This document shows, piece by piece, positions 2,637-49,350 of a stretch of DNA of 64,000 bases. Source of the DNA: Gemmatimonadota bacterium (GTDB lineage Bacteria; Gemmatimonadota; Gemmatimonadetes; Palauibacterales; Palauibacteraceae); contig JAVVDU010000010.1 of the NCBI GenBank assembly GCA_032251515.1, positions 5,244-69,243 on the forward strand, given 5' to 3'. Below the pieces are notes generated by a model. It was not told where the DNA came from. It did no database searches and saw only the letters and a list, made by a program, of their open reading frames with translations. Each line of letters opens with the position of its first letter. Position 1 is the stretch's first letter. Both the position numbers and the translations under genes were made by a program.

Positions 2637-3359
2637 TCAGCTCGTGATTCTCCAGTCGATCCGCTGCGCCACCCACACGCCGACGGGCTTGTCACGGTTC
2701 ATCGCGGGCGAGAAGCGCATCTGTTCCACCACCTGCTGCGCGGCATTGTCGAACGCCGGGTAGCCGCTCGACTTCTGGACCTGCGACTTGGCCGCGCGTC
2801 CGTTCTCGTCCACGAACACCCACAGCGTGACCTCGCCCGTGATCCCGGCCTCCCGCAGCATCGGCGGGTACAGCCGCTGCAGGACACGCGAGATCTCCGC
2901 GCCGTTCTTCATCCGCGGCTCCACGTCGCGCGGGATGTAGGAGGGCACGTCGGACGGCCGGGCGCCCTCGGGCGGCGGCGGCAGGTTCTCGACCGGGTTG
3001 TCCTCGAAGGTGGTCGGCGCGATGGTGACGTCCTCGTCCATGTTCACGTCCGCCGACACGCGCGGCGTAGCCGGGCGGGCGATCTGCTCCGGCGGCGGCG
3101 GGATCTTCACCTCGGGCGGCAGGTCGATGGACACGATCTCGTCGGTCACCGTGCCGATGTCGGCCGCCTGCAGCTGCGGGAACCAGGCGAACAGGGCGAA
3201 ATGGAGGAAGATCGCCCCCAGCACGCCCATCCACGTCCATCCGCCGTACGCCTGCTTGAACCGGTCGTTCGCCGTGAGCCAGGCGGCATCGCCTTCCCGG
3301 CGCTCCTTCAGCCGGTTTCTCCGGGCTCCACTGTCCTCGAGAGGGTTGTTCATCGTCAC
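2637..3359 (-). CDS. tonB: energy transducer TonB
   Basis: N-terminal TM segment, a Pro-rich spacer (PPEVKIPPPPEQ...PPPPE) and a TonB C-terminal domain (GEVTLWVFVDENGRAAKSQVQKSSGYPAFDNAAQQVVEQMRFSPA). ATGA coupling with the upstream exbD. Confidence 0.8.
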   Translation of the reverse strand: MTMNNPLEDSGARRNRLKERREGDAAWLTANDRFKQAYGGWTWMGVLGAIFLHFALFAWFPQLQAADIGTVTDEIVSIDLPPEVKIPPPPEQIARPATPRVSADVNMDEDVTIAPTTFEDNPVENLPPPPEGARPSDVPSYIPRDVEPRMKNGAEISRVLQRLYPPMLREAGITGEVTLWVFVDENGRAAKSQVQKSSGYPAFDNAAQQVVEQMRFSPAMNRDKPVGVWVAQRIDWRITS

Positions 3360-3799
3360 CTCCTCGCGCGCTGCACGCGCTGCTCGACTCGCGTGGCGAA
3401 CGTGACGCGGACCGCCCCCGCCGCCTGCAACTGCTTCGTCACCGTGTTGATGTCGGTGTACGGGACGTCCCGGTCTCCCCGGATCGCGACCACGAGCTCG
3501 CGGTTCTCCGAATAGATGGGCCGGATGACCTCGGAGATGATCTCCTGCGGCACGACCTGGTCGTTGATGAACACCGTGCCGTCCTGGTCCACCCAGACGT
3601 GCAGGATGTTCTTGCGCTTCTCATCGATCTTCTGAGTAGCCTGGGCCGTCGTCCAGTCGATCGGAACGTTCCGCTCGCGGCGGAACACGGTCGAGACCAT
3701 GAAGAAGATCAGGAGGAGGAACGCGATGTCCGCCATCGACGAGGACGGGATCTCGCTGTCCGCACCCGACTTCCGGCTGAAGCCCTTTCCCTTCGCCAT
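3356..3799 (-). CDS. exbD: biopolymer transporter ExbD/TolR
   Basis: ADIAFLLLIFFMVSTVF TM segment plus the ExbD periplasmic domain. Second of two tandem exbD copies. Confidence 0.85.
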   Translation of the reverse strand: MAKGKGFSRKSGADSEIPSSSMADIAFLLLIFFMVSTVFRRERNVPIDWTTAQATQKIDEKRKNILHVWVDQDGTVFINDQVVPQEIISEVIRPIYSENRELVVAIRGDRDVPYTDINTVTKQLQAAGAVRVTFATRVEQRVQRARR

Positions 3800-3800
3800 C

Positions 3801-4223
3801 TCACTCCTCGAGCATCTGCAGGGAGATCCGCTCGGCGCCCGCCAGCTTCACTTCGTCCAGCACGTTGATCATGTGCCGGTAGGCGGCCCCGGGATCCGTC
3901 TTGATCGCGGCGATCAGGTTCGCGTTCTGCTGCAGCTCCTGCCGCAGCAGCACGTCGACCTGGTCGTAGGGAATCACCTGCTCCTCCTGGCTCTCGCCCC
4001 GCTTCACGGTCACGGAGCCGTCCGGCCGGATGAGGAAGAAGATGATGTTCTTCGCGGACACTTCCTGAGTCTCGGCCTCCTCGGGGAGGACGATCGGAAG
4101 GCCCTTCTCCTCGTTGAACACCGTGGTGGTGAGGAAGAACACGAGGAGCAGGAACGCGATGTCCGCCATCGAGGCCGTCGGAATCTCGTCCGACACCCGT
4201 TCCTTCCGCTTCAGGATCGCCAT
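3801..4223 (-). CDS. exbD: biopolymer transporter ExbD/TolR
   Basis: MADIAFLLLVFFLTTTVF... ExbD family, a paralog of the downstream copy. Confidence 0.85.
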   Translation of the reverse strand: MAILKRKERVSDEIPTASMADIAFLLLVFFLTTTVFNEEKGLPIVLPEEAETQEVSAKNIIFFLIRPDGSVTVKRGESQEEQVIPYDQVDVLLRQELQQNANLIAAIKTDPGAAYRHMINVLDEVKLAGAERISLQMLEE

Positions 4224-4303
4224 CGTCGCTCTTTCGTCCTGGGGTTCGGCCCGGCTCCGTGCCGTGATCTACCCGCGGGGGGCACCCGCGGTCCGGCTCA
4301 CGC

Positions 4304-4951
4304 TCAGAGCCGCTGCTCCTTCTGGAGGCGCCAGATCAGGTCGAGCACCGCCTGCGCCCCCTTCTCCATGTCCGAGATCAGCGTGTCCACCCGTGACACG
4401 AAGTAGTTGTACGCCACGTGCACGGGAATGGCGATCGCCAGGCCCGATGCGGTGGTGATCAGGGCGATCTTGATGCCCGACGCGACGAGCGCGGGCTCCA
4501 CCTGCCCGGCCTCCTCGATCGCGGCGAACGCGGCGATCATTCCGATCACCGTGCCCAGGAAGCCGAGCATCGGCGCCACGTTCGCGATCGTGGCGAGCAC
4601 CGTGAGGCCTCGCTCGAGAAAGTCCAGCTCGATCGTTCCGGTGGTCGAGATCGCCTTGCCGATCTCCTTCTGCGAGCCACCTTCCTTCACGCGCCGCAGG
4701 CCCGTCAGCAGGATGGCGGCCACGGGGCCTCGCGTCTCGCGGGCCAGCTGGATCGCGTCGTCGAGCCGGCCGCCCTCGCCGAGCTCCTGGATTTCGGCCA
4801 GCAGCTTCTTCGAGTCGCGGTGCGCCACGAGGAGCGTCCACGCCTTGGCGAGAATCACGCCCAGGGCGACGAGCGAGCAGAGGACGAGCGGGAGCATCAT
4901 GAAGCCCCCGTCGTGGTAGATCGTCAGCAGCTCGTAACTGGTGTCTTGCAC
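4304..4951 (-). CDS. exbB: MotA/TolQ/ExbB proton channel
   Basis: Three TM helices, with the conserved ATIANVAPMLGFLGTVIGM and TTASGLAIAIPV motifs of ExbB/TolQ. Confidence 0.85.
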   Translation of the reverse strand: MQDTSYELLTIYHDGGFMMLPLVLCSLVALGVILAKAWTLLVAHRDSKKLLAEIQELGEGGRLDDAIQLARETRGPVAAILLTGLRRVKEGGSQKEIGKAISTTGTIELDFLERGLTVLATIANVAPMLGFLGTVIGMIAAFAAIEEAGQVEPALVASGIKIALITTASGLAIAIPVHVAYNYFVSRVDTLISDMEKGAQAVLDLIWRLQKEQRL

Positions 4952-23146: not shown

Positions 23147-23656
23147 TCATCGCTCCGGCGAGGGATGCTCCGTCTCGGGGTCCGCTCCGCTCCGCAGGGC
23201 GGTCCAGGCCCGGGGGTGCGCCCGGACCAGGAGCCCGCCCATCGCGACGCCCGCCAGGATGTTCGCGGCGGCGACGAGCCCCCAGCCCGGCACGCGGGCA
23301 CCGCTCGCCTCGAGGGCGGTGAAACCCGCCAGGGAGAGGAAGAAGCCGGCCAGGCCGGCGTACAGCACGACGATCGCGAACGAGGGGTGTCTCTCCGCCT
23401 GCAGCACGAGCCACGCCGCGGCCGTACCGATCGCCAGGAAGGCGAGCAGGTGGAGTCCGTTCACCGCGAACACGGCGCCGGCGGTCCCGCCGCGGGCCCC
23501 CGTGCCGGCGAGCCCGGATCCGAGGTCGATCGCGGCGGCGAAGAAGGAACGGCCGGCCAGCAGGCTGGCCACCCCGAAGAACAGGACGATGGCGAGATAG
23601 CCCGCGAGGCCCGCGGTGAGGCCCTCCACGAGCACGAGTCGACGCCGTGGCTGCAT
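23147..23656 (-). CDS. hypothetical membrane protein, 4-5 TM
   Basis: Hydrophobic helices, no family recognised. Located downstream of comM. Confidence 0.4.
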   Translation of the reverse strand: MQPRRRLVLVEGLTAGLAGYLAIVLFFGVASLLAGRSFFAAAIDLGSGLAGTGARGGTAGAVFAVNGLHLLAFLAIGTAAAWLVLQAERHPSFAIVVLYAGLAGFFLSLAGFTALEASGARVPGWGLVAAANILAGVAMGGLLVRAHPRAWTALRSGADPETEHPSPER

Positions 23657-35121: not shown

Positions 35122-36270
35122 TCAGTGCCGCAGCTGCTCGGCCTCGACGAGCTTCGCGAGCGCCTCGCGGCCCTCCTCGCTCAGCCGGTCGGGCAGCCGC
35201 ACGACGACCCGCACGAGCTGGTCCCCGCGCCGCTCCCCCTTTTCCACTCCCTGCCCCTTGATGCGGAAGGTGGTGCCGGACTGCGTCCCCGGAGGGATGC
35301 GGAGCACGACGCGGCGATTGTCGGGCGTCCGCACGCGGACCTTGGAGCCCATCATGGCCTGCGCGAGGTTGATGGGGATCTCGCAGCGCAGGTCCAGCCC
35401 GTCGCGCTCGAAGAAGGGGTCCGGTTTGACCTTGAACTGGACGATGAGATCGCCCGGCGGCCCGCCCTGCGGACCGCGCTCGCCCTGGCCGGACACCCGC
35501 AGACGGGACCCGTCGTCCACGCCGGCGGGAACGGTGACGGCGATGCGACGGCGCTGCGACACCTCCCCCCGGCCCTCGCAGGCGGGGCACGGCTGCTCGG
35601 GGACCGTGCCGCGGCCGAAGCAGGCCGGGCAGGGCCGCGGAATGGAGAACGACCCCTGGCCGAAAGTGATCGTGCCCCTGCCCCGGCACTCGGGGCAGGA
35701 CGACTGCGTCGCTCCCGGCGCGGCGCCGGAGCCGCGGCAGGCGGCGCACTCCTCGCGCACCGGAACGGAGATCCGGACCTTGCCTCCGCGCACCGCGGTG
35801 CGGAACGAGATCTCCACCAGGAACTCCACGTCCCGACCGCGCTCCGGGCCGGACGTCCGCTCGGCCGTGCGCCGGCCGAAGTCGAAGATCGACCCGAAGA
35901 TGTCGCCGAGCCCTCCGAGGTCCTCGAAGCGGAAACCGCGCCCCCCGGCCGGACCGCCGACGCCGCCGCCCGCCGCGCCCTCCGGGGAGGGCCGAGATCC
36001 GCCGGCGCGACCGAATCCGCCCGACGCCGCGAACCCGTCGAGGCCGCCGAACCGCCGATAGCGGTCGTACGTCTTCCGCTTCTCCGGGTCCGACAGTACG
36101 TCGTAGGCCTCCGCGACCTCCTTGAACTTCTCGCCCGCCGAGGGATCGTCCGGATTCGCGTCGGGGTGGTACCGCTTCGCCAGCTTCCGGTACGCCTTCT
36201 TGATCTCGTCGGCCGACGCTCCCGCCGCGACGCCCAGCGTCGCGTAATGATCCTTCGTCCGGGTCGCCAT
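35122..36270 (-). CDS. dnaJ: molecular chaperone DnaJ
   Basis: J-domain with HPD ([15 protein letters not shown]), a G/F region, and four CxxCxGxG zinc-finger repeats. Confidence 0.95.
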
Positions 36271-37058
36271 CAGTCCCGTACGTCTCCGTCCGCCCCGAGC
36301 GGGCGGTCCCCGGGCGCCGCGCCGGCGTCCTTCGCATCGTCCGCCGCGTCGGGGTCGTCGGCCTCGTCCACGGCCGCCGGGGCGTCGGCCTCCCCCTCCC
36401 AGCGGCGGACCTCGACCTGCGCTGGCCGTACGAGAAAGCCGCGCAGCCGGTACCCGTGCGCGAACACCCGCCCGACGGTCTCGTCTTCCTCCGGACGCTC
36501 CGCCGGCTCCACGCGGAGGGCCTGGTGGACCTCCGGATCGAAGGGCGCGCCCTCCGCCTCCACCCGCTGCAGCCCGTGTTCGGCCAGCGCCTTCTCGAGA
36601 TTCCGCCGGATCAGGTCGAGACCCCGGTCCAGCGCCTCGACCGTCGTCGTCTCATCCGGCAGATCGCGCCAGCGGGCGAGGTCGTCGAGCGCCGGGACCA
36701 CCGCGCGGGCGATGTCCGCCTGTGCCTGCACGCGGAAGTCCTCCCGCTCGCGGGCGGTGCGCTTGCGGAAGTTGTCGAACTCGGCGGCCAGCCGGAGCAG
36801 CCGGTCGTTCAGCGATGCGATCTCGTCGCGTGCGCGCTCGAGCTCGACGAGCAGCACCTCCGCCTCGGGCAGCTCGGCCAACTCGCCGGCGGGAGATTCC
36901 CCGCCGGCCTCCGGGCCCGTGGCCCCGGTCGCCTCCCCTGCGGCGTCGGCGGGCTCCGCCGGGGAGCCATCCCGTTGCGCCCGGGAGACGCCTCCCTCCT
37001 CCTCGCGGCCGGTGTCCGCCTCCGGCGCGCCGTTCCTACCACGTGACCTGCGGCTCAA
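36270..37058 (-). CDS. grpE: nucleotide exchange factor GrpE; start uncertain
   Basis: [17 protein letters not shown] coiled coil plus the C-terminal beta domain. TTG at 37058 overlaps the upstream stop as TTGA, with a GGGAGG RBS; an alternative ATG is at 37118. Confidence 0.8.
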
Positions 37059-37936
37059 CCCGTCCTCCCTCTGGTTGGTTCTCCCGCGGCGGGTGGTTCG
37101 ACCCGCTCGTCCAGCCATCCCGCCAGGTCCTCCAGCGCGGCCGGCGCCTGCGGGTCGTGGAACAGCGCGTGCCGCGCTCCTTCGTACTCCCGGATCCGGG
37201 CGGCCGGTTCCAGGCGCGCCGCGAGGTCGCGTGCCGCCTCGTTGCTCACGATGCGCTCGTCCCCGGCCAGCAGAAAGAGCGCCGGCACGTCGAGTCGCGA
37301 CGCCCCGCTCCGCAGCACCGCCGCCCCGCGCCGCATCTCGCCCCACGTCCGCGCGCTGATCCGCCGGTGCACGAGCGGATCCGCTTCCCAGGCCAGCCGG
37401 TCCGCCTCGCGCCGGAAGATGTCCTCGAGCGGGAGACCGTTGTCGAGCGTGAGTCCCGGTGCGACGGCGTCCGCCACGGCGCCCAGGGTCCGCTTCCAGC
37501 CGGGAACCCGGACGGCGGCCTCCACGAAGGGCGCGGAGAACACCACGCCCCGCAGCGTACCGGGGTCCGCCGCCAGGACGAAGCGCCCGGCCACCAGTCC
37601 GCCCAGCGAATGCCCGAACACGAAGATCGGCGCCCCGGTCTGCTCCGGCACGGCGGCGGCGCGCAGGGCCTCGAGGTCCTCCACCAGGAGCCCGAGCCGG
37701 GCCACGTGCCCGCGGCGACCCGGGGAACGGCCGTGCCCCCGCATGTCCGCGGCATGCACCGCGAAGCCCCGGCCGGACAGGAACGTCCCCACCGGCTCGT
37801 ACCGCCCGGCGTGCTCGCCGAGCCCGTGCACCAGGAGAACGTGTCCCCGTGCGGCGCCTGCGTCACCCCACGAGCGCCGGAACAGCTTCGCGCCGCCGGC
37901 TCCCGGAAACCAGCCGCCGTCCGCCGCGTCGGTCAT
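37055..37936 (-). CDS. alpha/beta hydrolase (lysophospholipase / monoacylglycerol-lipase-like)
   Basis: [14 protein letters not shown], nucleophile elbow GHSLGG, catalytic His near the C-terminus. ATGA overlap with cinA. Confidence 0.8.
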
Positions 37937-38457
37937 CGGGCCGCCTCCAGTCGCGCGAGCAGGAGCCGGAGGGCGCCGTCCACTGCCGCCGCACGCACGG
38001 CCTCCCGCCCGCCGTCGGCACGGAGGAGTCGCGCCTCGGCATCGTCGCACCCCGGCCCGGCGACGGCGAGCCACACCGTCCCCACGGGCTTGCCCGGCGA
38101 TCCTCCTCCCGGACCGGCCACGCCGGTCACGGCCAGCGCCCAGTCGGCCCGCGCGGCCCGCCGGGCGCCGCGGGCCATGGCGCGCGCCACCTCCTCCGAC
38201 ACGGCACCCCGGACGCGCAGGATTTCCGCGTCCACCCCCAGCAGATCGGACTTGAGACCGTCGGCGTAGGCGATGATTCCGCCCACGAACCCGGTCGAGG
38301 CGCCGGGCACCGCGGTGATCGCGGCTCCCAGCGCACCTCCGGTGCAGCTCTCCGCGACCGCCAGCGTCGACCGTCGTCCGGCGAGGCGTGCGAGGACGGT
38401 CCGGACCAACGGGGCATGGGACGATTCCCGCGGCCCGGGAGCGGCCCCGGAGCTCAC
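37933..38457 (-). CDS. pncC: CinA C-terminal domain protein (nicotinamide-nucleotide amidohydrolase PncC family)
   Basis: [17 protein letters not shown]... then [12 protein letters not shown]. Confidence 0.85.
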
Positions 38458-39095
38458 GCTCCTTCTGCCGGCCGCCGCCGGAACGCCCGCACGTAGATCA
38501 CGAGCGACACCACCGTCAGCAGGAGGGCCACGGCGAGCGACGCGCTGGTGAACCAGCCGTGCAGCCGGGACCAGGTGCGGAACAGCCCGCCGGTCCAGTC
38601 GTGTTCCAGCGCCGCGGTCCGCAGCGCCAGCCAGGCGATCATCGCACCGATGAACACGTTCTGCGCGAACGCCTTCCGCTTACCGATGGTCCGGGCGCCG
38701 AACACGACGCCACGCCGGGCGGCACGGGTGCGCAGGCCCGTCACCAGGAGCTCGCGCCCGAAGAACAGGACGAGCACCCACCACGCCACCCCTCCGAACA
38801 CGGGGAGCTGCCCCAGCGCCGGGTCGGCACGCGTGAGGATCCAGAACGGGACGAGGGTCGCGACGAGCAGCAGCTTGTCGGCCATCGGATCGACCAGCTT
38901 GCCGAAGTCGGTGATCTCCCCTCGCTGGCGCGCCAGGGCCCCGTCCACGAGGTCCGAAACGGCGGCGACGACGAACACCAGCCCCGCCGCGAGGCGCGCC
39001 GACGAGTCCGGCTGCAGCAGGAGCAGGGCGACCACGGGCGCCAGCACCACGCGGACCGCCGTGATGAGGTTCGGGAGGTTCCAGGTCGGGGCCAT
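38454..39095 (-). CDS. pgsA: CDP-diacylglycerol--glycerol-3-phosphate 3-phosphatidyltransferase
   Basis: Internal start [18 protein letters not shown]-alcohol phosphatidyltransferase motif [12 protein letters not shown]...[10 protein letters not shown]. Confidence 0.85.
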
Positions 39096-39105
39096 GGAAT
39101 CCCGC

Positions 39106-39681
39106 TCAGGCAAGCGCGCCGACGACGCGGACCGCGGCATCCAGGAGCGGCTCGAGCACCCCCTCACGGCGCAGGGCCGACGTCTCGTGGATCGTCCGGT
39201 CCCCGGCGTCGAGGCACCGGGCGAGCTCGTCCCGGTCGATGGCGTCCGCGAGGTCCCGCTTGTTGAACTGCAGGAGCAGGGGGACCGCCCCGCCGCCGGG
39301 CAACTCCGCCAGGTCGGTCGCGAGCTCCCGGAACGCCACGAGGTTCGCCTGCAGGCGGCCCGGGGCGCCATCGGCGACGAACACGATCGCGTCGGCGGAA
39401 CCAAGCAGCCGGCGGCGCAGTGCATCCGGCACGCCGGCGCCCGCCGGGGCCAGGAGCTGCAGGCGCAGGTCCCGCTCGTGCAGCCGACCCAGCTCCACGG
39501 TCAGCAGGTCGAACAGGACGGTGCCGCCCGTCTCGTCGGTCGGAGCGAGCAGCGGGCCCGTGCACGCGGCGTCCAGCGAATCGCGCACGGCCCGCAGCGT
39601 CTCCGTCTTCCCGGCGCCCCGCGGCCCCGCGTAGACGATGCGCGCGTGGACATCGAGCGCGTCCGCGTCCGAGCGCTCCAC
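39106..39681 (-). CDS. mglA: MglA-like Ras-superfamily small GTPase
   Basis: GTG start after GGAGG. P-loop ARIVYAGPRGAGKTETL (compare MglA KIVYYGPGLCGKTTNL), G3 LLAPAG, ADAIVFVADG, G4 LLQFNKRDL, ETSAL. Confidence 0.7.
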   Translation of the reverse strand: MERSDADALDVHARIVYAGPRGAGKTETLRAVRDSLDAACTGPLLAPTDETGGTVLFDLLTVELGRLHERDLRLQLLAPAGAGVPDALRRRLLGSADAIVFVADGAPGRLQANLVAFRELATDLAELPGGGAVPLLLQFNKRDLADAIDRDELARCLDAGDRTIHETSALRREGVLEPLLDAAVRVVGALA

Positions 39682-39685
39682 GCCG

Positions 39686-40024
39686 TCAGGCCTCCTCGAG
39701 TTCCGCGAGGTCCTCCTCCATCCCGGCGAGGATCGCCGTGGCCCGCTTGCGCAGGAGCGGCTTCTCCTCCCAGGCGAGGTAGTCGCGCAGCAGCAGGACG
39801 TTGTCCACGTCCGGGTGCGCCTTGAGGTATCCCAGCGCGGCGAGCCGCCGCAGCGGGAGCGGGCTGAACAGCTCCCGCTGGTTACGCGCCATCTGGTCGC
39901 GGGCCATCCACACCGTGAGGCCGGCCGCCGCGGCCGCCCCGACGATGACGCCCGCGACGATGCGCGCCACCTTCCACGTCGCATCCGTCCGATCGTCCCG
40001 GATCTTCACGATCCTTCGCACCAT
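39686..40024 (-). CDS. hypothetical small membrane protein (1 TM) immediately upstream of the MglA-like GTPase
   Basis: TM segment IVAGVIVGAAAAAGLTVWMA and a helical C-terminus. Not a roadblock/LC7 (MglB) sequence by eye. Confidence 0.45.
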   Translation of the reverse strand: MVRRIVKIRDDRTDATWKVARIVAGVIVGAAAAAGLTVWMARDQMARNQRELFSPLPLRRLAALGYLKAHPDVDNVLLLRDYLAWEEKPLLRKRATAILAGMEEDLAELEEA

Positions 40025-40612
40025 TCACATCTCCCGGCGTCCCGTGAACGCCTCGGCGATGGTCACTCCGTCCGCGTACTCCAGGTCTCCACCGACTGGC
40101 AGACCCCGTGCCAGCCGGGTGACGCGCAGGCCATCCAGGTCCGCCGCGAGGCGGTGCAGGTACGCCGCCGTCGCCTCGCCCTCCACGCTGGGGTTGGTGG
40201 CGATGATGAGCTCCCGCACGTCACCCCCCAGCCGTCGCATCAGCGAGGCGATGTTCAGCTCGTCCGGTCCGATCCCGTCCAGCGGCGACAGGTGGCCGCC
40301 CAGCACGTGGTACCGGCCCCGGAACTGCCCCGCACTCTCGATCGCCGCGATGTCGGACGATTCCTCCACCACGCAGATCGAGGCCGCGTCGCGCCGCGGG
40401 CTCCGGCACAGCTCGCAGGGGTCCGCGCCGCTCAGGTTGCCGCACTCCGAGCAGGGCCGGACCTCGTCGACCACCCGCTCGATCGCCCGCGCCAGGCGGC
40501 GCGCCTCCTGCGGAGGGGCCTTGAGCAGGAAGTAGGTCAGCCGCTGCGCCGTCTTGCGGCCGATCCCGGGCAGTCGCCCGAACTCCTGGACGAGGGATTC
40601 GATCGCCGACAC
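40025..40612 (-). CDS. recR: recombination protein RecR
   Basis: HhH LPGIGRKTAQRL, C4 zinc finger CSECGNLSGADPCELC, and a Toprim domain. Confidence 0.9.
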   Translation of the reverse strand: MSAIESLVQEFGRLPGIGRKTAQRLTYFLLKAPPQEARRLARAIERVVDEVRPCSECGNLSGADPCELCRSPRRDAASICVVEESSDIAAIESAGQFRGRYHVLGGHLSPLDGIGPDELNIASLMRRLGGDVRELIIATNPSVEGEATAAYLHRLAADLDGLRVTRLARGLPVGGDLEYADGVTIAEAFTGRREM

Positions 40613-40628: not shown

Positions 40629-40961
40629 TCAGCCCAGCAGGGAGCCGAGGCCCGGCAGCGGCATGCCGCCGGCCGCCTTGCGCATCTCCGTCTCCAGCAG
40701 CTCCCGCGCGCGCCGCTGCGCTTCCGATACCGCCGCCAGCACCAGGTCCTCCAGCATCTCCACGTCTGAGGGGTCCACCGCGGAAGGGTCGATCCGGATC
40801 GTCCGGATGCTTCCCTTTCCGTCGGCCGTCACCTCCACGAGGCCCCCTCCCGTGGCGGCCGTGACCGTCTCCTTCTCGAGCCGCTCCTGGGCTTCCGCCA
40901 TGCGCGACTGCATCTGCTGGCCGAGCTGGAACAGCTGCTGGATATCGTTCAGGTTCTTCAC
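40629..40961 (-). CDS. ybaB: YbaB/EbfC nucleoid-associated protein
   Basis: MKNLNDIQQLFQLGQQMQSRMAEAQERL... typical YbaB. Conserved dnaX-ybaB-recR order. Confidence 0.9.
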   Translation of the reverse strand: MKNLNDIQQLFQLGQQMQSRMAEAQERLEKETVTAATGGGLVEVTADGKGSIRTIRIDPSAVDPSDVEMLEDLVLAAVSEAQRRARELLETEMRKAAGGMPLPGLGSLLG

Positions 40962-40968
40962 CCCTCCA

Positions 40969-42720
40969 TCACTCCTTGAGCTCGAGGTCCAGGGTTTCTA
41001 CCGCCTGCCGCAGTCGTGGGTCCGTCTCCATCCACCGGCGCAGTTTCTGGTCCCGCGCCGCCTCGGCCGTCATGCGACGCGGCCCGTCCCCGGCGTTCAG
41101 CTCGAACACGAGGTCCGCGGGCTCGAGACCCAGCCGGGCGCCGAGCTCCCGCCGGAGCCCGTCCGATCGGGCCGGGTCCCCCAGGAACTCGTCCAGGTCG
41201 GTGACGAGGCCGCCCGGGACCTCCAGCCGCACCGTGGAGCCATCGAGCCCCTGGATCGTGGCGCCCCGCAGGCCGATCGCGGCGCCCCGCAGGCTGCGGC
41301 CGCGCACCGCCTCCAGGGCGCCGCGCCACGCCTCGTGCAGCGAGCCGGCGCCCGCCCCCCCCGCCGGTTCCGCGGCCCGGTCCGCCGCCTGCCCGGTGGC
41401 CGGCTGCGCTGCCGGCTCCGGCGGCGGATCCGCCTTCGGACGGGCGCGCGATGGCGGCCCGTCGGCTTCCACGGGCCCCGGTCGCGACGCGGCCGGAGCG
41501 GGCTCCGACCGGCCGCGCGGCGACCGGGGCGCGGCACGGGGGGGCGTTCGGCGCGCCCGCGTGGGCTCGCTCCCGCCCTCCAGCAGGCCCAGCAACTCGT
41601 CCAGCCCCACGATCGCGTCCACGCTGGCGAGCCGCAGCAGCAGCATCTCGACCTGGATCCGGGGCTGCGAGCTCCGCCGCAGCCGCCCCGAAGCCTCGAA
41701 TTCCGCCGCGGCGGCCAGCATGCGAAGCAGCTCCTCCACGGAGAACCGGTCGGCGGCCTCCCGGAACGCGGTCCGCGACTCCGGCGCGAGCTCGGCGGTG
41801 TCCGCCTCGGGGTCGAGCCGCAGGGCCAGCAGGACCCGCAGCGCCTCGCCGAGGCCGCGGGCGAACTCCGCCAGGTCGTATCCGTCATCGAGGAGGCCCT
41901 GCACGAACGGGAACACGCTGGCCCGGTCGCGCTCCGCGACGCGCGCGAACAGCTCCAGGTATCGCTCCTCCTCGACGAGTCCCAGCAGCCGTCGCACGTC
42001 CTCGGTCCGTACCTCCGAGCCGGAGAACGAGAGTACCTGGTCGAGCATCGACAGGGCGTCGCGCACGCCCCCGTCCGCCCGGCGCGCGATCGGCAGGAGC
42101 GCGCCCTCCTCTGCCTCGACCCCCTCCAGGGCGAGGACCTCGCGCAGCCGCTCCACGAGCTCCGGTACCGTCACCCGACGGAAGTCGAACCGCTGCACGC
42201 GCGACAGCACGGGCGCCGCGGTCTGCCGGATCTTCTGCGGCTCGGTCGTCGCGAAGACGAAGATCACCCGCGGCGGCGGCTCCTCCAGGATCTTGAGCAG
42301 CGCATTCCACGCTTCCCGGGTGAGCATGTGGGCCTCGTCCACGATGTAGATCTTGTGGCGGTCTTCGTCCGACGGAGCGTACATCGCCCGCTCGCGCAGG
42401 TCCCGCGCATCATCCACGCCCCGGTGGCTCGCCGCGTCGATCTCCACCACGTCCACCGCCGTGCGGCCGGCCCAGATCCGCTCGCAGGACTCGCACGTGC
42501 CGCACGGCTCGCCCGCCGATCGGGCCTCGCAGTTCAAAGCCATGGCGAGAACGCGGGCCGCGGTGGTCTTGCCGATGCCGCGCGGGCCGCAGAACAGGTA
42601 GGCGTGCGCGGCGCGCCCCTCCTCCACGGCGGCCCGGAGGGTCCGGGACACGTGATCCTGGCCGATCAGCTCGGAGAAATGGCGCGGGCGGTGGCGGCGT
42701 GCGAGCGCTGTGCGATACAT
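40969..42720 (-). CDS. dnaX: DNA polymerase III subunit gamma/tau
   Basis: Walker A GPRGIGKTTAARVLA, zinc module CGTCESC, Walker B YIVDEAHML, sensor motifs, and a Pro/Ala-rich tau linker. Confidence 0.9.
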   Translation of the reverse strand: MYRTALARRHRPRHFSELIGQDHVSRTLRAAVEEGRAAHAYLFCGPRGIGKTTAARVLAMALNCEARSAGEPCGTCESCERIWAGRTAVDVVEIDAASHRGVDDARDLRERAMYAPSDEDRHKIYIVDEAHMLTREAWNALLKILEEPPPRVIFVFATTEPQKIRQTAAPVLSRVQRFDFRRVTVPELVERLREVLALEGVEAEEGALLPIARRADGGVRDALSMLDQVLSFSGSEVRTEDVRRLLGLVEEERYLELFARVAERDRASVFPFVQGLLDDGYDLAEFARGLGEALRVLLALRLDPEADTAELAPESRTAFREAADRFSVEELLRMLAAAAEFEASGRLRRSSQPRIQVEMLLLRLASVDAIVGLDELLGLLEGGSEPTRARRTPPRAAPRSPRGRSEPAPAASRPGPVEADGPPSRARPKADPPPEPAAQPATGQAADRAAEPAGGAGAGSLHEAWRGALEAVRGRSLRGAAIGLRGATIQGLDGSTVRLEVPGGLVTDLDEFLGDPARSDGLRRELGARLGLEPADLVFELNAGDGPRRMTAEAARDQKLRRWMETDPRLRQAVETLDLELKE

Positions 42721-43478: not shown

Positions 43479-44303
43479 TCAGGTCGGGAACCGCCATCCC
43501 TCGCGGGCGACCTCCGTCCGGCCGCGCCAGCCCGCCGCCGCCAGGAGCGACGGGAGATCGGCGGCGGTCCGGAACGCGGGATAGACGTGCGTCAGGAGAA
43601 GGAGCCCCGGCGCCGCCCCGGCCGCGACGGCCGCGACGGAGGCCGGGGAGAGGTGGTTGTCGACCGCGTGGGAATCCGGCAGGGCGCATTCGCACACGAG
43701 GAGATCGGCCCCGCGCGCGAAGGACGCGAGCTCGGGGCAGGGACCGGTGTCCCCCGTGTAGACGATCGTCCCCGGGCCGCCCGCGAGCCGCAGCGCCTGG
43801 CTCTCGGCGGTGTGCGGAACGGGCTGACCGCGCAGCGTCACCGCCCCGCCGAGCACCGTGTCGGCGCCGGGGCGCATCTCGCAGATCTCGACCGGGAACC
43901 CCGGGTCGGTCACGAACGGGCCGAACGCCGCCGCCATGCGGTCGACCAGGTCCCGGGTGCCCCGGGGCCCGTGGATCCGCAGGGGCTCCTCCCGCGTCTC
44001 GGGCAGGAGTGCGTGGGTGAGGGCGAACAGCAGCCCCGGCATCGCGCCGACGTGGTCGGCGTGGAAGTGCGTGAGCACGAGGTCGGTGATCCGCGACCAC
44101 GGCAGGCCGAGGCGGGCCATCGCCTGCAGCGCCCCGGGCCCGCAGTCGAGCAGGGCCCGTACGGGACCGCTCTCGAGCCAGTAAGCGGAACAGGCGCGGT
44201 CGGCCTCCGGCACGACGGTGCCACATCCGACCACGACGAAGCGGTCGCCCGGTGCAGCGGGCTCCGGAACCGGCGCCGGGGGGCGGCCGCCGGCCTCCGT
44301 CAC
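43479..44303 (-). CDS. MBL-fold metallo-hydrolase, RNase Z/ElaC-like
   Basis: GTG start in a GTGA overlap with the smc stop. FVVVGCGTVVPEADRACSAYWLE...LLDCGPGA...LVLTHFHADHVGAMPGLLFAL (HxHxDH), and a C-terminal LLLTHVYP. Confidence 0.75.
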   Translation of the reverse strand: MTEAGGRPPAPVPEPAAPGDRFVVVGCGTVVPEADRACSAYWLESGPVRALLDCGPGALQAMARLGLPWSRITDLVLTHFHADHVGAMPGLLFALTHALLPETREEPLRIHGPRGTRDLVDRMAAAFGPFVTDPGFPVEICEMRPGADTVLGGAVTLRGQPVPHTAESQALRLAGGPGTIVYTGDTGPCPELASFARGADLLVCECALPDSHAVDNHLSPASVAAVAAGAAPGLLLLTHVYPAFRTAADLPSLLAAAGWRGRTEVAREGWRFPT

Positions 44304-47300
44304 GCGACCTGTCCCCGGGGCAGGTCGCGGATGTCCATCGCCACGAGGGTGCTCACGCCCGGCTCCTGCATCGTCACGCCGTAGATGTGGTCGGCCGCCT
44401 CGATGGTGCGGGGGTTGTGCGTGATGACGATGAACTGGGTGCTCTCCTTGAACCGCTCGAGCATCGCCGTGAAGCGTCCGATGTTCGACTCGTCCAGCGG
44501 CGCGTCCACCTCGTCCATCACGCAGAAGGGGCTCGGCTTCGCCAGGTAGATCGCGAACAGGAGCGCCAGCGCGGTGAGCGCCCGCTCCCCGCCCGACAGC
44601 AGGTGGATCCGCTGCGTGCGCTTGCCGCGCGGGCTCGCCGAGATCTCGATCGGCGAATCGAGCGGATCGGCCGGGTCCTCGAGCCACACGTCCGCCTCGC
44701 CTCCCTCGAACAGCGTCACGAAGATGCGCTGGAAGTTCTCGCGCACCTGCTCGAACACCTGCTCGAACGAGCGGGACGCCGCCTCGTTGATCCGCTGGAT
44801 CGATCCGAGAAGGTCGTCGCGCGCCGACACCAGGTCCTCCCGCTGCCCCTGGAGGAAGTCGAGCCGCTCCTTCTCCTCGTCGTACTCGGCCGCCGCCAGG
44901 AGGTTGACCGGACCCAGCGAGGCGAGCGACTCCCGCACTTCCTCGAGCTCGGTCCGCCAATCCTCGGGAGACCCTTCGGCCGGACGTTCCACGCGCGCCC
45001 GCAGGCTCTCGAGTTCCTCCTCCCATTCGGCCTCGATGCGCTCGCGGATCGCCGCCCGCGCCCCGTGCAGGCGCGTCGCCTCCAGCTCCAGCTCGTGCAG
45101 CCGGTCGGCGGTCTGCCGCTCCCGCTGCCGCAGGGCGCGCAGCGCCGTCTCGCGGCGCTCCACCTCGTCGCGGCGCTCCGCGAGCCCTTCCGTCGCCCGC
45201 GCGACCTCGTCGGCGAGGGCCCGCCGCTCGCCGAACAGGCGCTCCAGCGATTCCTCGCTCGCCGCCAGCGCGGCGTGGCCCGCCTCGATGGCAGCCTCCC
45301 GCTCGGCCTTCTCGGCGGCCAGGCGCCGTTCCCGCTCCGCGAGCTCTTCGTCCCGCTCCGCGAGACGCCGCGTCCGCTCGGCCGCCGCCGCCGCTTCGGC
45401 CTCTGCCCGGGCGATCCGCAACCGCGACTCCTGCAGCGCGGCGCTGCCGGCCTCCCAGTCCCCGGTCGCCGTGGCCAGTTCCGCGCGGCAGTCGGACAAC
45501 GACGCCTCGACCCGCTCGCGTTCCGTCCGCAGCTCCGCGAGCCGCTCCGAGCCCGCCTCCTGCTCCGGCCCCCCGCGGCCCAGCATTTCCTCGAGCTCCA
45601 CGATCCGACCGTCGAGCTCGGCCGACAGCCGCCGGGCCCGCTCGAGTCCCGCGGCCGCGTCGTCCCGCGCCTCGACGGCGGCGCGAAGCCGGACCGATGC
45701 CTCCTCCAGCGCCCGGTCCGCCGCGGCGGCTTCCGCCGCGAGGCGCCGGGTCCGTGCGGACTCCGCCTCGACCTCGCCCTGTGCCTCTTCCACGCGGCGC
45801 TCCAGGTCGTCGAGGCGGCGCCGGAGCTCGTCCAGCTCCGCCCGGCGCCGCAGGGCCCCGCGCCCGCCCGCCGGCCGGCCGATCCGGACCGCGCCGGCCG
45901 CGTCCTGTCCGCTGCCGTCGGGCGCCACCCAGGGCCCGGTCGCCGGCCCGAAGCCCTCGGCGCGGGACTCGACCCCCGCCAGCAGGGCCCGCACCCAGGG
46001 CGCCCCGGCTCCGCGCGCCTCCACGCGCGCCAGGAGTCCCCCCTTTCCGGCCCGCGCGACCGGGCCGGGATCCAGGGGAAGCAGCACGACGCCCTCCCCT
46101 TCGCCCCGCGCCTGCAGCCAGGCGCGAACGCGCTCCACCGTCCGCCAGTCATCCACCACGACGGCGTGCAGGAAGCTCCCCAGGTGTGCCTCGACCGCCG
46201 CGACGTCGGCGGCTGGGACGCGCACGCAATCGGCCAGGACGCCGTGCGTGCCCGGCGAGGCGGCCGGGTCCTCCAGCAGGGCCGTGACGACGGACGGGAG
46301 GTCGCGCCCCGAGTCGAGCAGCGCCGCGAGCGCCGCGGCCCGTTCACGCGCCGCCGAAAGCTCGCCGGCGAGAGCCGCGTGCCGCTCGCGCGCCTCCCGC
46401 TCGCCGTCCCGTCCGGTCCGCTCCGCCTCCCGCGCCGCCTCGAGTCGAGCCTCGAGCTCCGCCCGCTCCTGCGCCGCGGCGGCCGTCCGGGCCTCGTGGG
46501 CGGCGAGATCCTCCGCGTACCGGTCCGCGCCCGCGCGCAGCTCGTCGCGCTCCGCCCGCCGGCGCTCGAGCTCCCGCTGCCGTTCGTGCTGCCGCTCGCG
46601 CAGCGCTTCCGCCTCCGCCCCGGCGGACCCGATCCCGGCGATGAGCCGGTCCAGCTCGGCACGCGCCTCCGCCTCGAGCGCGGCGAGCTCGGAGCGCCGC
46701 GCGCGCAGCCGGCCCACGCGCTCGTCCAGGCCGGCCTCCTCCTCCCGCAGGCTGCGCAGCGCCGCTTCGGCCTCCGTCGCGGCAGCGGCGGCTTCCTCGC
46801 GCTCCTCGGCGATCCGGCGCCGGCCGGCCGCCATCTCGTCCCGCTCGGCGGCCAGTCCGTCGAGGCGCGCGCGTGCCGTGGCGATCCGCTCCTCGGTCAG
46901 CAGCCGCTCCCGCTCCAGGGCTTCGAGGCGCCCCCGCACCTCCTCCAGGCGGCTCGCGGCAGCCGTCCGGTTCCGCTCCCGCTCCACCAGGTCGAGGCGC
47001 AACGCCTCGACCTCGGTCTCCTCCACCCCGAGGCTGCTCTCCGCCTCGGGCCGCACGCGCCGTGCCTCGGCGAGGGCCTCGTCGACCTCCCGCATCCGGT
47101 CCTCGATGGCGGCGAGGCGCGCGTCGGCCACCGCCACCTCGAGCACCAGGCGGCGCTCGCGCAGCTCCTGCCAGCGGCGCGCCCGGCCACGCTGGCGGGC
47201 CAGCGAACGGACCTTGCTCTCGACCTCACCGATCACGTCCTCGAGCCGGCGCAGGTCATGCTCCGCCTGCTCCAGCCGCCGCAGGGCGGTCCGCCTGCGG

Positions 47301-47815
47301 TCCTTGTAGCGGCCGACCTCCGCCGCCTCCTCGAACAACGAGCGCCGCTCTTCGGCCCGGTCGCTGAGAATCGCGTCGATCATCCGGCTCTCGATGATCG
47401 AGTAGGCGTTCGCTCCGAGCCCCGTGTCGCGGCACAGGTCCTGGATGTCGCGCAACCGAACGGCGCGCTCGTTCAGCGTGTAGACGCTCTCGCCGCCACG
47501 CAGCACCGTGCGTCCGATCACCACCTCGGCGTGCGGAACGGAGAGCAGGCCGTCCTCGTTGGAGAGGGCGAGCTGGACCTCGGCGCGGTGGACCGGCTTC
47601 CGCCCCGACGTGCCCTGGAAGATCGCCTCCTCCATCCGGCTGCCCCGGATCGCGGACGGCCGCTGCTCGCCGAGCACCCAGCGCAGGGCGTCGGAGATGT
47701 TCGACTTGCCGCACCCGTTCGGGCCGACGATGGCCGTGATCCCTTCCCGGAAGTCGATGTGGATCCGGTCGGCGAACGACTTGAAGCCGTGCAGGGTCAA
47801 GGACCGGACCTTCAC
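44300..47815 (-). CDS. smc: chromosome segregation protein SMC
   Basis: Start VKVRSLTLHGFKSFADRIHIDFREGITAIVGPNGCGKSN (Walker A). Long coiled coils, a hinge, the C-terminal signature LSGGERALTALALLF, and Walker B VMDEVDAPLDE. 1171 aa. The upstream 470 codons of the 1641-aa ORF are a non-coding extension. Confidence 0.9.
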   Translation of the reverse strand: MKVRSLTLHGFKSFADRIHIDFREGITAIVGPNGCGKSNISDALRWVLGEQRPSAIRGSRMEEAIFQGTSGRKPVHRAEVQLALSNEDGLLSVPHAEVVIGRTVLRGGESVYTLNERAVRLRDIQDLCRDTGLGANAYSIIESRMIDAILSDRAEERRSLFEEAAEVGRYKDRRRTALRRLEQAEHDLRRLEDVIGEVESKVRSLARQRGRARRWQELRERRLVLEVAVADARLAAIEDRMREVDEALAEARRVRPEAESSLGVEETEVEALRLDLVERERNRTAAASRLEEVRGRLEALERERLLTEERIATARARLDGLAAERDEMAAGRRRIAEEREEAAAAATEAEAALRSLREEEAGLDERVGRLRARRSELAALEAEARAELDRLIAGIGSAGAEAEALRERQHERQRELERRRAERDELRAGADRYAEDLAAHEARTAAAAQERAELEARLEAAREAERTGRDGEREARERHAALAGELSAARERAAALAALLDSGRDLPSVVTALLEDPAASPGTHGVLADCVRVPAADVAAVEAHLGSFLHAVVVDDWRTVERVRAWLQARGEGEGVVLLPLDPGPVARAGKGGLLARVEARGAGAPWVRALLAGVESRAEGFGPATGPWVAPDGSGQDAAGAVRIGRPAGGRGALRRRAELDELRRRLDDLERRVEEAQGEVEAESARTRRLAAEAAAADRALEEASVRLRAAVEARDDAAAGLERARRLSAELDGRIVELEEMLGRGGPEQEAGSERLAELRTERERVEASLSDCRAELATATGDWEAGSAALQESRLRIARAEAEAAAAAERTRRLAERDEELAERERRLAAEKAEREAAIEAGHAALAASEESLERLFGERRALADEVARATEGLAERRDEVERRETALRALRQRERQTADRLHELELEATRLHGARAAIRERIEAEWEEELESLRARVERPAEGSPEDWRTELEEVRESLASLGPVNLLAAAEYDEEKERLDFLQGQREDLVSARDDLLGSIQRINEAASRSFEQVFEQVRENFQRIFVTLFEGGEADVWLEDPADPLDSPIEISASPRGKRTQRIHLLSGGERALTALALLFAIYLAKPSPFCVMDEVDAPLDESNIGRFTAMLERFKESTQFIVITHNPRTIEAADHIYGVTMQEPGVSTLVAMDIRDLPRGQVA

Positions 47816-49350
47816 CACGGCCTCCCGCGCCGGGATACCAGCCGCGGCTCCTGGCCCGCGGCTCGCAGCATCTCGCCCAGCGGAGCCGCCGCCTCCTCGG
47901 ACTCGAAGGCGCCGGCGTACAGCGCGTACACCTCCTGCCCTTCCTCTCCGGCCGGCACGACGTAAGCGATCCCCGGGGAAAGGCCCGCCTCCTCGAGACG
48001 GCGCACGGCCGCCCGGCCCTCGTCCGCGGTGTGGAACACGCCGACGAGCCACGCGAGACCGACGGGCCGCACGTCCCACGCCCGCGCCCGCTCCTTGTGT
48101 CCCGCCTCCACGAGCTCGCGCATCAGCGATTCCCCCGCGGTCCGCTCCGCCCGCGCCCCGGCCAGCACGCGGTAGTAGACCCGCCCCCGGATCGGCGTGG
48201 GCGCCACGAACAGCGCCGCCGCACGGCCGCCCTCCCGCAGCTGGCGCGCCGCGTCCTCGGGCCGCGCGAAGCTCGCGATCAGAACGGAATACGGCAGCTC
48301 GGGGGCGGCCGGGCCCGCGGGCAGCTCCGGCGGAGCGAACTCCGCCGGGCCCTCTCCCGGATCCGGGTCGTCCGCGGCGTCCGCTCCCGCGGCGGCCCGA
48401 CCGGCGGACGGCCCGCCAGCCTCGCCCGGACCGGACGCATCCGCCACGACGGCGCCTTCCGGCGCGCCATCGCCGTCCCCGCTGCCCCCGGCCAGCAACG
48501 CCCACGCCAGCACTGCCCCGACGGCGAACACGGCGACGACGATGGGCAGCTGCCACCCGAATCGGCGGCGCGGTGGTCGGTCGGTCGCCCCCGCGCGCCC
48601 CTCCGGCGCGGCGGCGCCTCCCGCCGCGCGGCCCTCTCCCGCGGCGGCGGCGTCTCCCGGGCCCGTGGCCGCCCTCATCGCCTCCGCTTCGGCCCCGGGC
48701 CGAGGAGCGCCCGCCGGCCGCTCGACCCGCGCGAGGAGCGGCGCACCTGCCAGCAGGGCCGGTTCCTTCACGTCGCCGATCGCGATGCAGCCGTCCAGGG
48801 GAAGGTCGAAGTCCGGATCCGGTCCGTACTCGCCGGCCAGGTCCTCCTCCGCCACGTAGAGGAGCACCGTGCCGCCCCGTTCGGCCACCCGGCGCAGCAG
48901 CCGATGGAATGCCGGAACCTCGCGCAGGCGGCCGAGGGGGAGGGCCCGGGCACCCGCCGGCAGATACGCGAACGCCTGGCGCGGCGCGGAACGCGCGGCC
49001 CGCGACAGGGGAAGGTCTCCGGCGAGCGAGCGGGTGAGACCGGGCGCGTCCACCGCGTCCATCAGACCGTCCAGCTCCTCCGCGCCCGGCACCGTGCAGG
49101 CGAGAAACGTGCGGCCCCGCCGCCGGCCCACCAGGTCGGCGAGGCCCGCGGCCACGCCCGCGGACCAGGCCCCCCCGCCCCGCTCGCGGACCAGCGCCAC
49201 CACCGAGGCGGACGCGGGAAGCCACGGGATGGCCTCGCCTGCCGGCTCGGCCCCGGGCTCCGGTCCGCGCTCCGGTCCGCGCTCCGTCACGGGCCCCGAT
49301 CGGGACCCCGGCCCGGCCACCGGCTCAGGCATCCGGCCCGACTCAGGCAT
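47812..49350 (-). CDS. SPOR-domain protein with a cytoplasmic degenerate ParA/MinD-like domain (bitopic)
   Basis: Stop overlaps the smc start. The N-terminal region SVVALVRERGGGAWSAGVAAGLADLVGRRRGRTFLACTVPG aligns by eye to a ParA/MinD deviant Walker A in which both lysines are lost. TM segment LPIVVAVFAVGAVLAWALL. C-terminal tandem SPOR-like repeats (YSVLIASFARPEDAARQL...; YALYAGAFESEEAAAPLGEML). Confidence 0.55.
   Translation of the reverse strand: MPESGRMPEPVAGPGSRSGPVTERGPERGPEPGAEPAGEAIPWLPASASVVALVRERGGGAWSAGVAAGLADLVGRRRGRTFLACTVPGAEELDGLMDAVDAPGLTRSLAGDLPLSRAARSAPRQAFAYLPAGARALPLGRLREVPAFHRLLRRVAERGGTVLLYVAEEDLAGEYGPDPDFDLPLDGCIAIGDVKEPALLAGAPLLARVERPAGAPRPGAEAEAMRAATGPGDAAAAGEGRAAGGAAAPEGRAGATDRPPRRRFGWQLPIVVAVFAVGAVLAWALLAGGSGDGDGAPEGAVVADASGPGEAGGPSAGRAAAGADAADDPDPGEGPAEFAPPELPAGPAAPELPYSVLIASFARPEDAARQLREGGRAAALFVAPTPIRGRVYYRVLAGARAERTAGESLMRELVEAGHKERARAWDVRPVGLAWLVGVFHTADEGRAAVRRLEEAGLSPGIAYVVPAGEEGQEVYALYAGAFESEEAAAPLGEMLRAAGQEPRLVSRRGRPW

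Follow-up and report, generated by a model that had tools for sequence, protein, structure and literature searches.

Can an MglA-type GTPase persist once the gene for MglB has gone from its locus, and is a small membrane protein encoded beside it the replacement? These questions are raised by a 64-kb stretch of Gemmatimonadota DNA (73% GC; hereafter, the window), in which a gene for a small Ras-like GTPase lies directly downstream of a gene for a small membrane protein, with recR on one side of the pair and pgsA on the other. An initial annotation of the window had described this placement, which Pfam matches to both flanking genes bear out, and had proposed that the small protein is a dedicated regulator or effector of the GTPase, replacing the GTPase-activating protein (GAP) MglB. 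Having compared the locus across the phylum, we think it likely that the GTPase is instead a GAP-independent, probably hydrolysis-deficient derivative of MglA from a lineage that lost mglB once, and that the small protein is no surrogate for MglB.

The GTPase is a diverged MglA

A phmmer search of PDB sequences with the GTPase retrieved the MglA proteins of M. xanthus and T. thermophilus over the full length (E = 4e-22 to 2e-21); the next family, Arl3, followed at E = 4e-4. When a model of the GTPase made with AlphaFold2 (AF2; predicted local distance difference test 85, predicted template-modelling score 0.85) was used in Foldseek, the top 14 matches were all MglA (TM-score 0.81-0.87; best match 6izw_A, TM-score 0.87, E = 4e-18), and Arl3 was again the next family (E = 2e-9). 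Scans with Pfam and NCBIfam gave no family above cut-off, and weak matches only, to Arf (E = 0.002) and AAA_16. The product is a single-domain small G protein whose nearest relatives in both sequence and structure are MglA, as the initial annotation had recognized from its P-loop (GPRGAGKT), ADAIVFVADG and NKRD motifs. These motifs are all present; the product length, given there as 192 amino acids (aa), is 191 aa, since the 192 codons of the frame, which begins with GTG, include the stop. The same 191-aa protein is annotated by NCBI in a Gemmatimonadota metagenome-assembled genome (MAG).

The window GTPase shares 30% identity with M. xanthus MglA and occupies the longest branch of the family. 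A word-indexed search returned only 8 proteins, which could be taken to mean that the gene is very rare. We rejected that idea, as retrieval based on synteny finds that orthologues are common; the word-indexed search found few of them because they are too diverged for the index. Beyond a taxon listing, we found no literature on MglA in Gemmatimonadota.

mglB was lost from an ancestral gene cluster

We compared approximately 175 Gemmatimonadota loci, fetched around homologues of the small protein from GTDB species genomes, assemblies and metagenomes, and annotated by profile and pairwise searches; the related loci were covered with flanks of 4-6 kb on either side. Common to all of them is the order dnaX-ybaB-recR-small gene, followed after a variable interval by pgsA-cinA-(hydrolase)-grpE-dnaJ. 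Three classes can be told apart by what lies in that interval. In class A (Gemmatimonadales, Gemmatimonadaceae and others), where the small protein is mostly 89-95 aa long but is called at up to 152 aa, the small gene has a gene for a Robl_LC7/MglB protein (~165 aa) directly behind it wherever there is room (83/83 loci), and a gene for a 224-aa MglA comes next after mglB in 61/61. These MglA proteins carry GPGLGGKT in 54/54 distinct sequences, and R53-T54 and TVPGQ in 49/49 each; that of locus L090 shares 71% identity with M. xanthus MglA. A further 85 loci have a small protein of a 112-aa type, in each case with the small gene directly after recR. In class B (the window and 43 of these 85 loci), there is no mglB and the GTPase gene follows the small gene directly, with pgsA on its other side. 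In class C (42/85, including Palauibacter chromosomes), pgsA itself follows the small gene directly, and no GTPase gene was found within 4 kb on either side of the small gene in any of the 42 loci.

The initial annotation had noted that no MglB/roadblock gene lies beside the GTPase, and this holds for the rest of the window too. A tblastn search with MglB of Gemmatimonadales (E ≤ 1) gave no match in the 64-kb window or in any of the 85 loci of the 112-aa type (L001-L085), none of the 37 window open reading frames (ORFs) scanned with Pfam matched Robl_LC7, and no mglB lies within four genes of the GTPase gene. In a neighbour-joining tree of RecR plus the small protein, loci with MglB fall in one clade (69/69), and the loci without MglB make up the complementary clade of 80 leaves, within which the presence or absence of the GTPase gene requires three parsimony changes; this and our other trees are neighbour-joining trees of short proteins. 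The simplest history is that mglB was lost once and that the GTPase gene was lost at least two to three times thereafter. A link of mglBA to dnaX, recR and ybaB has also been reported from deltaproteobacteria (PMC3983030), and loss of mglB is therefore likelier than gain. We conclude that the ancestral cluster was dnaX-ybaB-recR-small gene-mglB-mglA-pgsA-cinA. Located between the small gene and pgsA, in a dnaX-ybaB-recR...pgsA-cinA-grpE-dnaJ context that matches the surroundings of mglB-mglA in the sister clade, the window GTPase gene (39106-39681) is a positional orthologue of mglA and descends from the operon copy. The absence of mglB is gene loss, not replacement.

Several other features of these loci emerged from the comparison. 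MglA of class A has an insertion of ~30 residues, PGWPVEDPTKQKAVADPWHEGDYLVEEIDGMWIERAPYF, between G4 and G5 (L090:6799-7473, L091:6805-7479, L094:6793-7467), which neither M. xanthus MglA nor the 191-aa GTPases of loci without MglB possess. Loci with such a GTPase encode a short CinA (C-terminal domain, ~170 aa) and a Hydrolase_4 alpha/beta hydrolase before grpE (window 37933-38457 and 37055-38074, respectively), and loci with mglB-mglA encode a full-length CinA (MoCF_biosynth, KH and CinA domains, ~415 aa; e.g. L090:8138-9388) and no hydrolase. Presence of the hydrolase follows presence of the GTPase, with loci L031 and L071 as exceptions. One contig, from a MAG labelled 'Akkermansiaceae bacterium' (L014, CAXMRU010000131.1), bears the full Gemmatimonadota-type dnaX-ybaB-recR-small gene-GTPase-pgsA cluster; its small protein and that of the window share 63% identity. 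The contig is probably mis-binned.

Hydrolysis determinants decay in the GTPases without MglB

Aligned in register with MglA numbering, the window GTPase keeps GxxxxGK[ST], T26, T54, D58, G81 and NKRD, and MglA residues G21, R53, T78, V79, P80 and Q82 are all replaced. On the β2 face that contacts MglB, F56 and F59 are both replaced by Leu (VLFDLL versus LFFDFL). Group 1 MglA proteins are defined by R53 and TVPGQ, and the intrinsic arginine finger, R53 beside the G2 residue T54, reportedly occurs in every Group 1 member (Wuichet & Sogaard-Andersen 2014, PMC4316618). The window GTPase has the G1 (GxxxxGK[ST]) and G4 ([NT]KxD) motifs of this group, and lacks R53-T54, TVPGQ with Gln82, and Gly21, which is needed if a GAP is to stimulate hydrolysis. 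In MglA, both intrinsic and MglB-stimulated hydrolysis are abolished by Q82A, and strongly lowered by R53A and by G21V (PMC3199381).

Among the 41 class B GTPases analysed, the nucleotide-binding motifs are nearly invariant: all 41 have GK[ST] and D58, and 40 have N[KR]RD, the remaining protein, from locus L019, having GKRD. Position 21 is Gly in none of the 41; it is Ala in 26, Arg in 8, Glu in 4, Ser in 2 and Pro in 1. R53 is found in 26/41 and Q82 in 18/41. Approximately half of the class B proteins are canonical save for Ala21 (ERT, TVPGQ), and the others show decayed variants of the two motifs, namely GST with SAPGD, GST with TAPGE, RT with GLPGD, RS with TAPAG, and GG with AIAAT; the pair in the window protein is GGT with APAGA.

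No gene of the cluster evolves faster than that of the GTPase: measured against the window protein, its median identity is 39.6%, as compared to 80% for recR, 74% for ybaB, 67% for pgsA, 64% for both the small gene and dnaX, 54% for cinA and 46% for the hydrolase. Nei-Gojobori ratios of non-synonymous to synonymous substitution rates (dN/dS) for pairs of GTPases from the degenerate clades are nevertheless 0.08-0.32, similar to those of pgsA (0.11-0.26), and the pair nearest the window, from loci L003 and L019, gives 0.24. We conclude that the degenerate GTPases are maintained by selection. In one locus (L027:1308-2039), similarity to the orthologues ends right after NKRDLP and unrelated sequence follows, which points to a frameshift, whether from a pseudogene or from an assembly error.

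A probable GAP-independent MglA derivative

We propose the following course of events. In the lineage of the window, mglB was deleted once from the ancestral cluster. Gly21 was then replaced in all descendants of the mglB-less lineage, and several sub-lineages further lost R53 and Gln82 with its TVPGQ context, the window protein being one that lost all three determinants. From the nucleotide and Mg2+ elements that are kept, the predicted intact fold, and the purifying selection in the nearest degenerate clades, we infer that the window GTPase still binds guanine nucleotide. It would hydrolyse GTP at a very low rate, if at all, and, given cellular GTP/GDP ratios, would be mostly GTP-loaded. Such a protein may serve as a GAP-independent MglA-like adaptor rather than as a fast-cycling polarity switch, in which case its output would be set by expression or by binding partners and not by a GTPase cycle.

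Several points weigh against this proposal. The loci come from capped sets ('best 80') of MAGs and metagenomes, and the counts given here are therefore samples and not a census. A gene for MglB, for another GAP or for a RomR/RomX-like protein may lie elsewhere in the genome, the searched part being the 64 kb of the window. The loss of hydrolysis upon loss of R53 and Q82 is predicted by analogy with MglA mutants; HAS-GTPases hydrolyse GTP without the canonical Gln, and Arg21 in the P-loop could in principle assume a catalytic role. Selection was measured in neighbouring clades, as the closest relative of the window GTPase is at most 48% identical to it. Lastly, the unbroken adjacency of the small gene to mglB-mglA in the sister clade could mirror a functional link.

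The small membrane protein is not a substitute for MglB

The initial annotation described the product of the upstream ORF as a 112-aa protein with one transmembrane (TM) helix and a helical C-terminus, and without roadblock features. Our analysis agrees on each point. There is one hydrophobic segment, residues 22-40, which lies within a long helix (residues 12-52) of an AF2 model that is helical throughout, the C-terminus included. The possibility that the protein is a roadblock was rejected: it has no Robl_LC7 match, the model is all-alpha, and the sister loci contain a separate, true mglB. Pfam and NCBIfam gave nothing above cut-off, with a sub-threshold match to DUF2613 on the TM segment; no Pfam HEAT model matched, and a profile of the protein had 0 matches among PDB sequences. 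The matches to its fold are HEAT/ARM repeats and are non-significant (Foldseek E > 0.2).

Homologues of the small protein are numerous. The word-indexed search found 417 at E ≤ 0.1, of which the best 120 are 57-82% identical, and a hidden Markov model scan of 1.84 billion representatives found 167 clusters at 50% identity; every member that bears an organism name is from Gemmatimonadota. Its build is a variable N-terminal tail, one hydrophobic helix, and a strongly conserved C-terminal domain with the motif LFSP.PLRRLAALGYL..HP.V..V.LLRDYLAWEE.PLLRKRA..IL..ME. The hydrophobic segment scores ~2.0 on the Kyte-Doolittle scale, in support of a TM segment. Counts of Lys plus Arg on the two sides of the hydrophobic helix favour a cytoplasmic C-terminal domain for the 90-aa forms (1.1 versus 3.6) and are neutral for the 112-aa forms (3.1 versus 3.2). 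The synteny check agrees with the adjacency described above: the small gene has recR before it in all loci of the 112-aa type, and the GTPase gene after it in 43/85. Its only universal coupling, which is also its tightest, is to recR.

For classes A, B and C, respectively, the ratio of divergence of the C-terminal domain to that of RecR is 0.87, 0.90 and 0.93. As these ratios are nearly equal, loss of MglB, or of both MglB and MglA, has not relaxed selection on the small protein. In class A the small protein stands beside a true MglB, and hence is no substitute for MglB. It is kept in loci without the GTPase and under the same constraint in all three classes, from which we conclude that neither MglA nor MglB is needed for its core function. 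It may, in addition, interact with MglA or MglB.

In a further alternative, which we consider unlikely, the small TM/HEAT-like protein would be an unrecognized, Gemmatimonadota-specific third component of the MglA/MglB system, a membrane anchor or effector whose gene directly precedes mglB-mglA throughout the sister clade, and the module in the lineage of the window would have been rewired to a GAP-less, hydrolysis-dead MglA that the small protein holds constitutively at the membrane. If true, this would tie a Ras-like switch to the adjacent DNA-repair and nucleoid genes, dnaX-ybaB-recR, or to phospholipid synthesis, through pgsA.

The dedicated pair of the initial annotation, with the small protein as membrane-anchored regulator or effector of the GTPase in MglB's place, is quite unlikely. 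The two genes are indeed adjacent in 43 loci, usually 4-5 nucleotides (nt) apart, the small gene is directly upstream of mglB-mglA throughout the sister clade, the putative HEAT-like fold also counts in favour, and the positive-inside counts of the 90-aa forms point to a C-terminal domain in the cytoplasm. The counts are ambiguous for the 112-aa form, however, which is the form in the window. The small protein coexists with genuine MglB in class A and persists in the 42 class C loci, which have neither mglB nor mglA beside the small gene, while its constraint relative to RecR stays the same with or without MglA and MglB. The searches showed no similarity of it to roadblock proteins or to RomX, and its gene is always coupled to recR in a cluster that is otherwise all housekeeping.

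Alternatives to a hydrolysis-deficient GTPase

We regard it as very unlikely that the GTPase still cycles, either with a GAP encoded elsewhere that provides catalytic residues in trans, or with Arg21 as a catalytic arginine in cis. Eukaryotic precedents exist for the former, RasGAP providing an Arg and RapGAP an Asn, and the search for a GAP covered 64 kb of the genome. For the latter, Arg21 is found in 8/41 orthologues, including the window protein, which lacks R53. Compensation for the lost R53 by Arg21 was nonetheless rejected, since the two do not co-vary consistently across the orthologues: the proteins of loci L035, L025, L026 and L020 have both arginines, and those of L001, L008 and L003 have neither. 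In addition, the residues that replace Gln82 are mixed (A, E, D, G, R and T), which is what would be expected of selection that was relaxed and not redirected, and the G12R form of Ras is insensitive to GAPs.

Least probable is that the GTPase is a non-functional relic nearing deletion, its motifs lost by neutral decay after the loss of mglB: although the gene is the fastest-evolving of the cluster (five of the six neighbours compared in sufficiently many loci reach 54-80% identity, the hydrolase alone being comparably low), has its longest branch in the window, was lost repeatedly in related lineages and seems frameshifted in locus L027, its ORF is intact in 42/43 loci, dN/dS in the degenerate clades is low, GK[ST], D58 and N[KR]RD are kept as described above at 30-60% overall identity, the AF2 model has a confident G-domain, and the coding signature of the window gene is strong (GC of 0.84, 0.49 and 0.93 at the three codon positions, like that of neighbouring genes). 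On the grounds of dN/dS, intact ORF and third-position GC, we likewise consider a pseudogene in the window unlikely.

Relationship to known MglA proteins

The closest parallel to our proposal of a GAP-independent MglA derivative is MglA of Bdellovibrio bacteriovorus (Bd3734; Milner et al. 2014, PMC3983030). There, too, mglB was lost from within the same dnaX/recR/mglA/DUF149 synteny, the neighbourhood was kept, Gly21 is naturally replaced (by Ser), and the GTPase gene was retained after the loss of mglB; Bd3734 is a functional gene, and its product has been proposed to be permanently GTP-bound. Ala or Ser is found at position 21 in 5/9 species without MglB (PMC3983030). Unlike the window protein, Bdellovibrio MglA keeps R53 and TVPGQ, and has 82% similarity to M. 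xanthus MglA (PMC3983030). The two also belong to different phyla, and no RomR or tetratricopeptide repeat (TPR) partner is known for the window GTPase.

With canonical Group 1 MglA (M. xanthus and T. thermophilus; 6izw, 3t12), the window GTPase shares the fold (TM-score 0.81-0.87), the P-loop, T54, D58, G81 and NKRD. Like canonical MglA/MglB, it derives from a syntenic mglBA operon, one that is still present in sister Gemmatimonadota; unlike canonical Group 1 MglA, it has no MglB at its locus. Orphan MglA homologues, among them SofG and Bdellovibrio MglA, account for 59/449 (PMC4316618), and the window GTPase resembles SofG and the other orphans in not lying within four genes of mglB. SofG, however, is a paralogue beside MglA/MglB that keeps the Group 1 catalytic residues, whereas the window orphan is the former operon copy and has lost them. 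The term that fits the window GTPase best is degenerate orphan MglA; in evolutionary terms, it is a Group 1 descendant.

For the small protein, RomX (PDB 8ZNA), which binds MglA-GTP, would be a plausible analogue of the soluble domain, in that both are small, all-helical and found in organisms that bear MglA. RomX, however, forms a bundle of three long helices, is soluble and has RomR-REC as its partner, whereas the small protein combines a predicted membrane anchor with short hairpins that may be HEAT-like. As compared to HEAT-like repeat proteins (alphaRep/PBS-HEAT, E. coli YibA, the AP adaptor and karyopherin), it consists of one short unit joined to a predicted membrane helix.

Orphan MglA proteins as such are already known. 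New are the graded series of decay within a single syntenic locus, the complete disappearance of the three hydrolysis determinants from a family of genes still under selection, and an uncharacterized, conserved small membrane protein found across Gemmatimonadota between recR and mglB/mglA/pgsA. The locus offers a natural experiment on the fate of a Ras-like switch after deletion of its GAP: within one phylum and at one locus, MglA linked to MglB is nearly frozen, whereas every MglB-less descendant has replaced the Gly equivalent to Ras Gly12. The single case of Bdellovibrio is thereby joined by GAP-free MglA proteins that form a graded series, which could be used to ask what role a non-cycling MglA plays.

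Organization of the locus in the window

The genes of the window cluster are closely packed on the minus strand, in the order dnaX-ybaB-recR-small gene-GTPase-pgsA-cinA-alpha/beta hydrolase-grpE-dnaJ, as judged from ORFs and Pfam matches (Table 1). The dnaX assignment is supported by its counterparts in related loci, retrieved with the window protein as query, which match DNA_pol3_delta2, DNAX_ATPase_lid and DNA_pol3_gamma3. The tightest junction is that of recR and the small gene, where the TGA of recR abuts the ATG of the small gene (TGAATG). The initial annotation had the small gene and the GTPase gene overlap by GTG...TGA; in fact, 4 nt (cggc) separate the TGA of the small gene (39688-39686) from the GTG of the GTPase gene at 39681, so there is no overlap. 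The ATG of pgsA lies 10 nt downstream of the GTPase stop codon. No sigma-70-like promoter and no intrinsic terminator were found on the minus strand in a scan of 34.5-44 kb, which fits a single transcription unit but is weak evidence at 73% GC. The whole cluster, head to tail, is probably co-transcribed.

Table 1 Coordinates of features in and around the GTPase gene of the window
Feature	Position	Strand	Basis and remarks
CinA C-terminal (PncC-like) domain gene	37933..38457	-	Pfam; 4-nt overlap with pgsA stop
pgsA-like CDP-alcohol phosphatidyltransferase	38454..39095	-	Pfam, synteny
GTPase, MglA-derived, 191 aa	39106..39681	-	PDB sequence search, fold search, synteny
G4 NKRD, guanine specificity, intact	39253..39264	-	Sequence, motif table
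G3 APAGA for MglA TVPGQ	39436..39450	-	Gln82 to Ala; Gly81 kept
G2 Gly53-Thr54	39520..39525	-	Intrinsic arginine finger R53 lost, switch-I Thr kept
G1/P-loop GPRGAGKT	39604..39627	-	Sequence; Arg at position of MglA Gly21 (Ras Gly12)
Small membrane protein, 112 aa	39686..40024	-	ORF, homologues, AF2
Shine-Dalgarno-like GAGGAGG	39691..39697	-	Within 3' end of small gene; 9 nt upstream of GTPase GTG
C-terminal helical domain of small protein, residues ~52-111, three helices	39692..39871	-	Conserved motif
Predicted TM segment of small protein, residues 22-40, IVAGVIVGAAAAAGLTVWM	39905..39961	-	Kyte-Doolittle 19-residue mean 2.08
recR	40025..40612	-	Pfam RecR_HhH, RecR_ZnF, Toprim_4, RecR_C; always upstream of small gene
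ybaB/ebfC (formerly DUF149)	40629..40961	-	Pfam
dnaX, 583-aa ORF upstream of ybaB	40969..42720	-	ORF

Further genes of the window were noted in passing. The grpE ORF (36270-37346, minus strand) encodes 358 aa from a GTG, with a long N-terminal stretch rich in Arg, Gly and Pro. Codon-position GC is anomalous in a crudely delimited sub-range (36270-36900), and translation probably begins well downstream of the first start codon; this case indicates that ORF calls from the first start are unreliable in a window of 73% GC. Likewise, an SMC-like ORF (44300-49225, minus strand) is listed at 1641 aa, but its match to SMC_N starts only at residue 473; probably the ORF was given too early a start, or else the protein has a long N-terminal extension. 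A 169-aa ORF at 23147-23656 (minus strand) has a good coding signature (third-position GC 0.91) and no Pfam match at E ≤ 0.001. At 1207-1770 and 2637-4951, both on the minus strand, a DivIVA homologue lies beside a YggS-like gene (Ala_racemase_N), and a TonB-ExbD-ExbD-ExbB cluster comes next. Otherwise the window contains housekeeping genes, for FtsH, ribosomal proteins, sigma-70, signal peptidase, an H+-PPase and a MacB-type ABC transporter.

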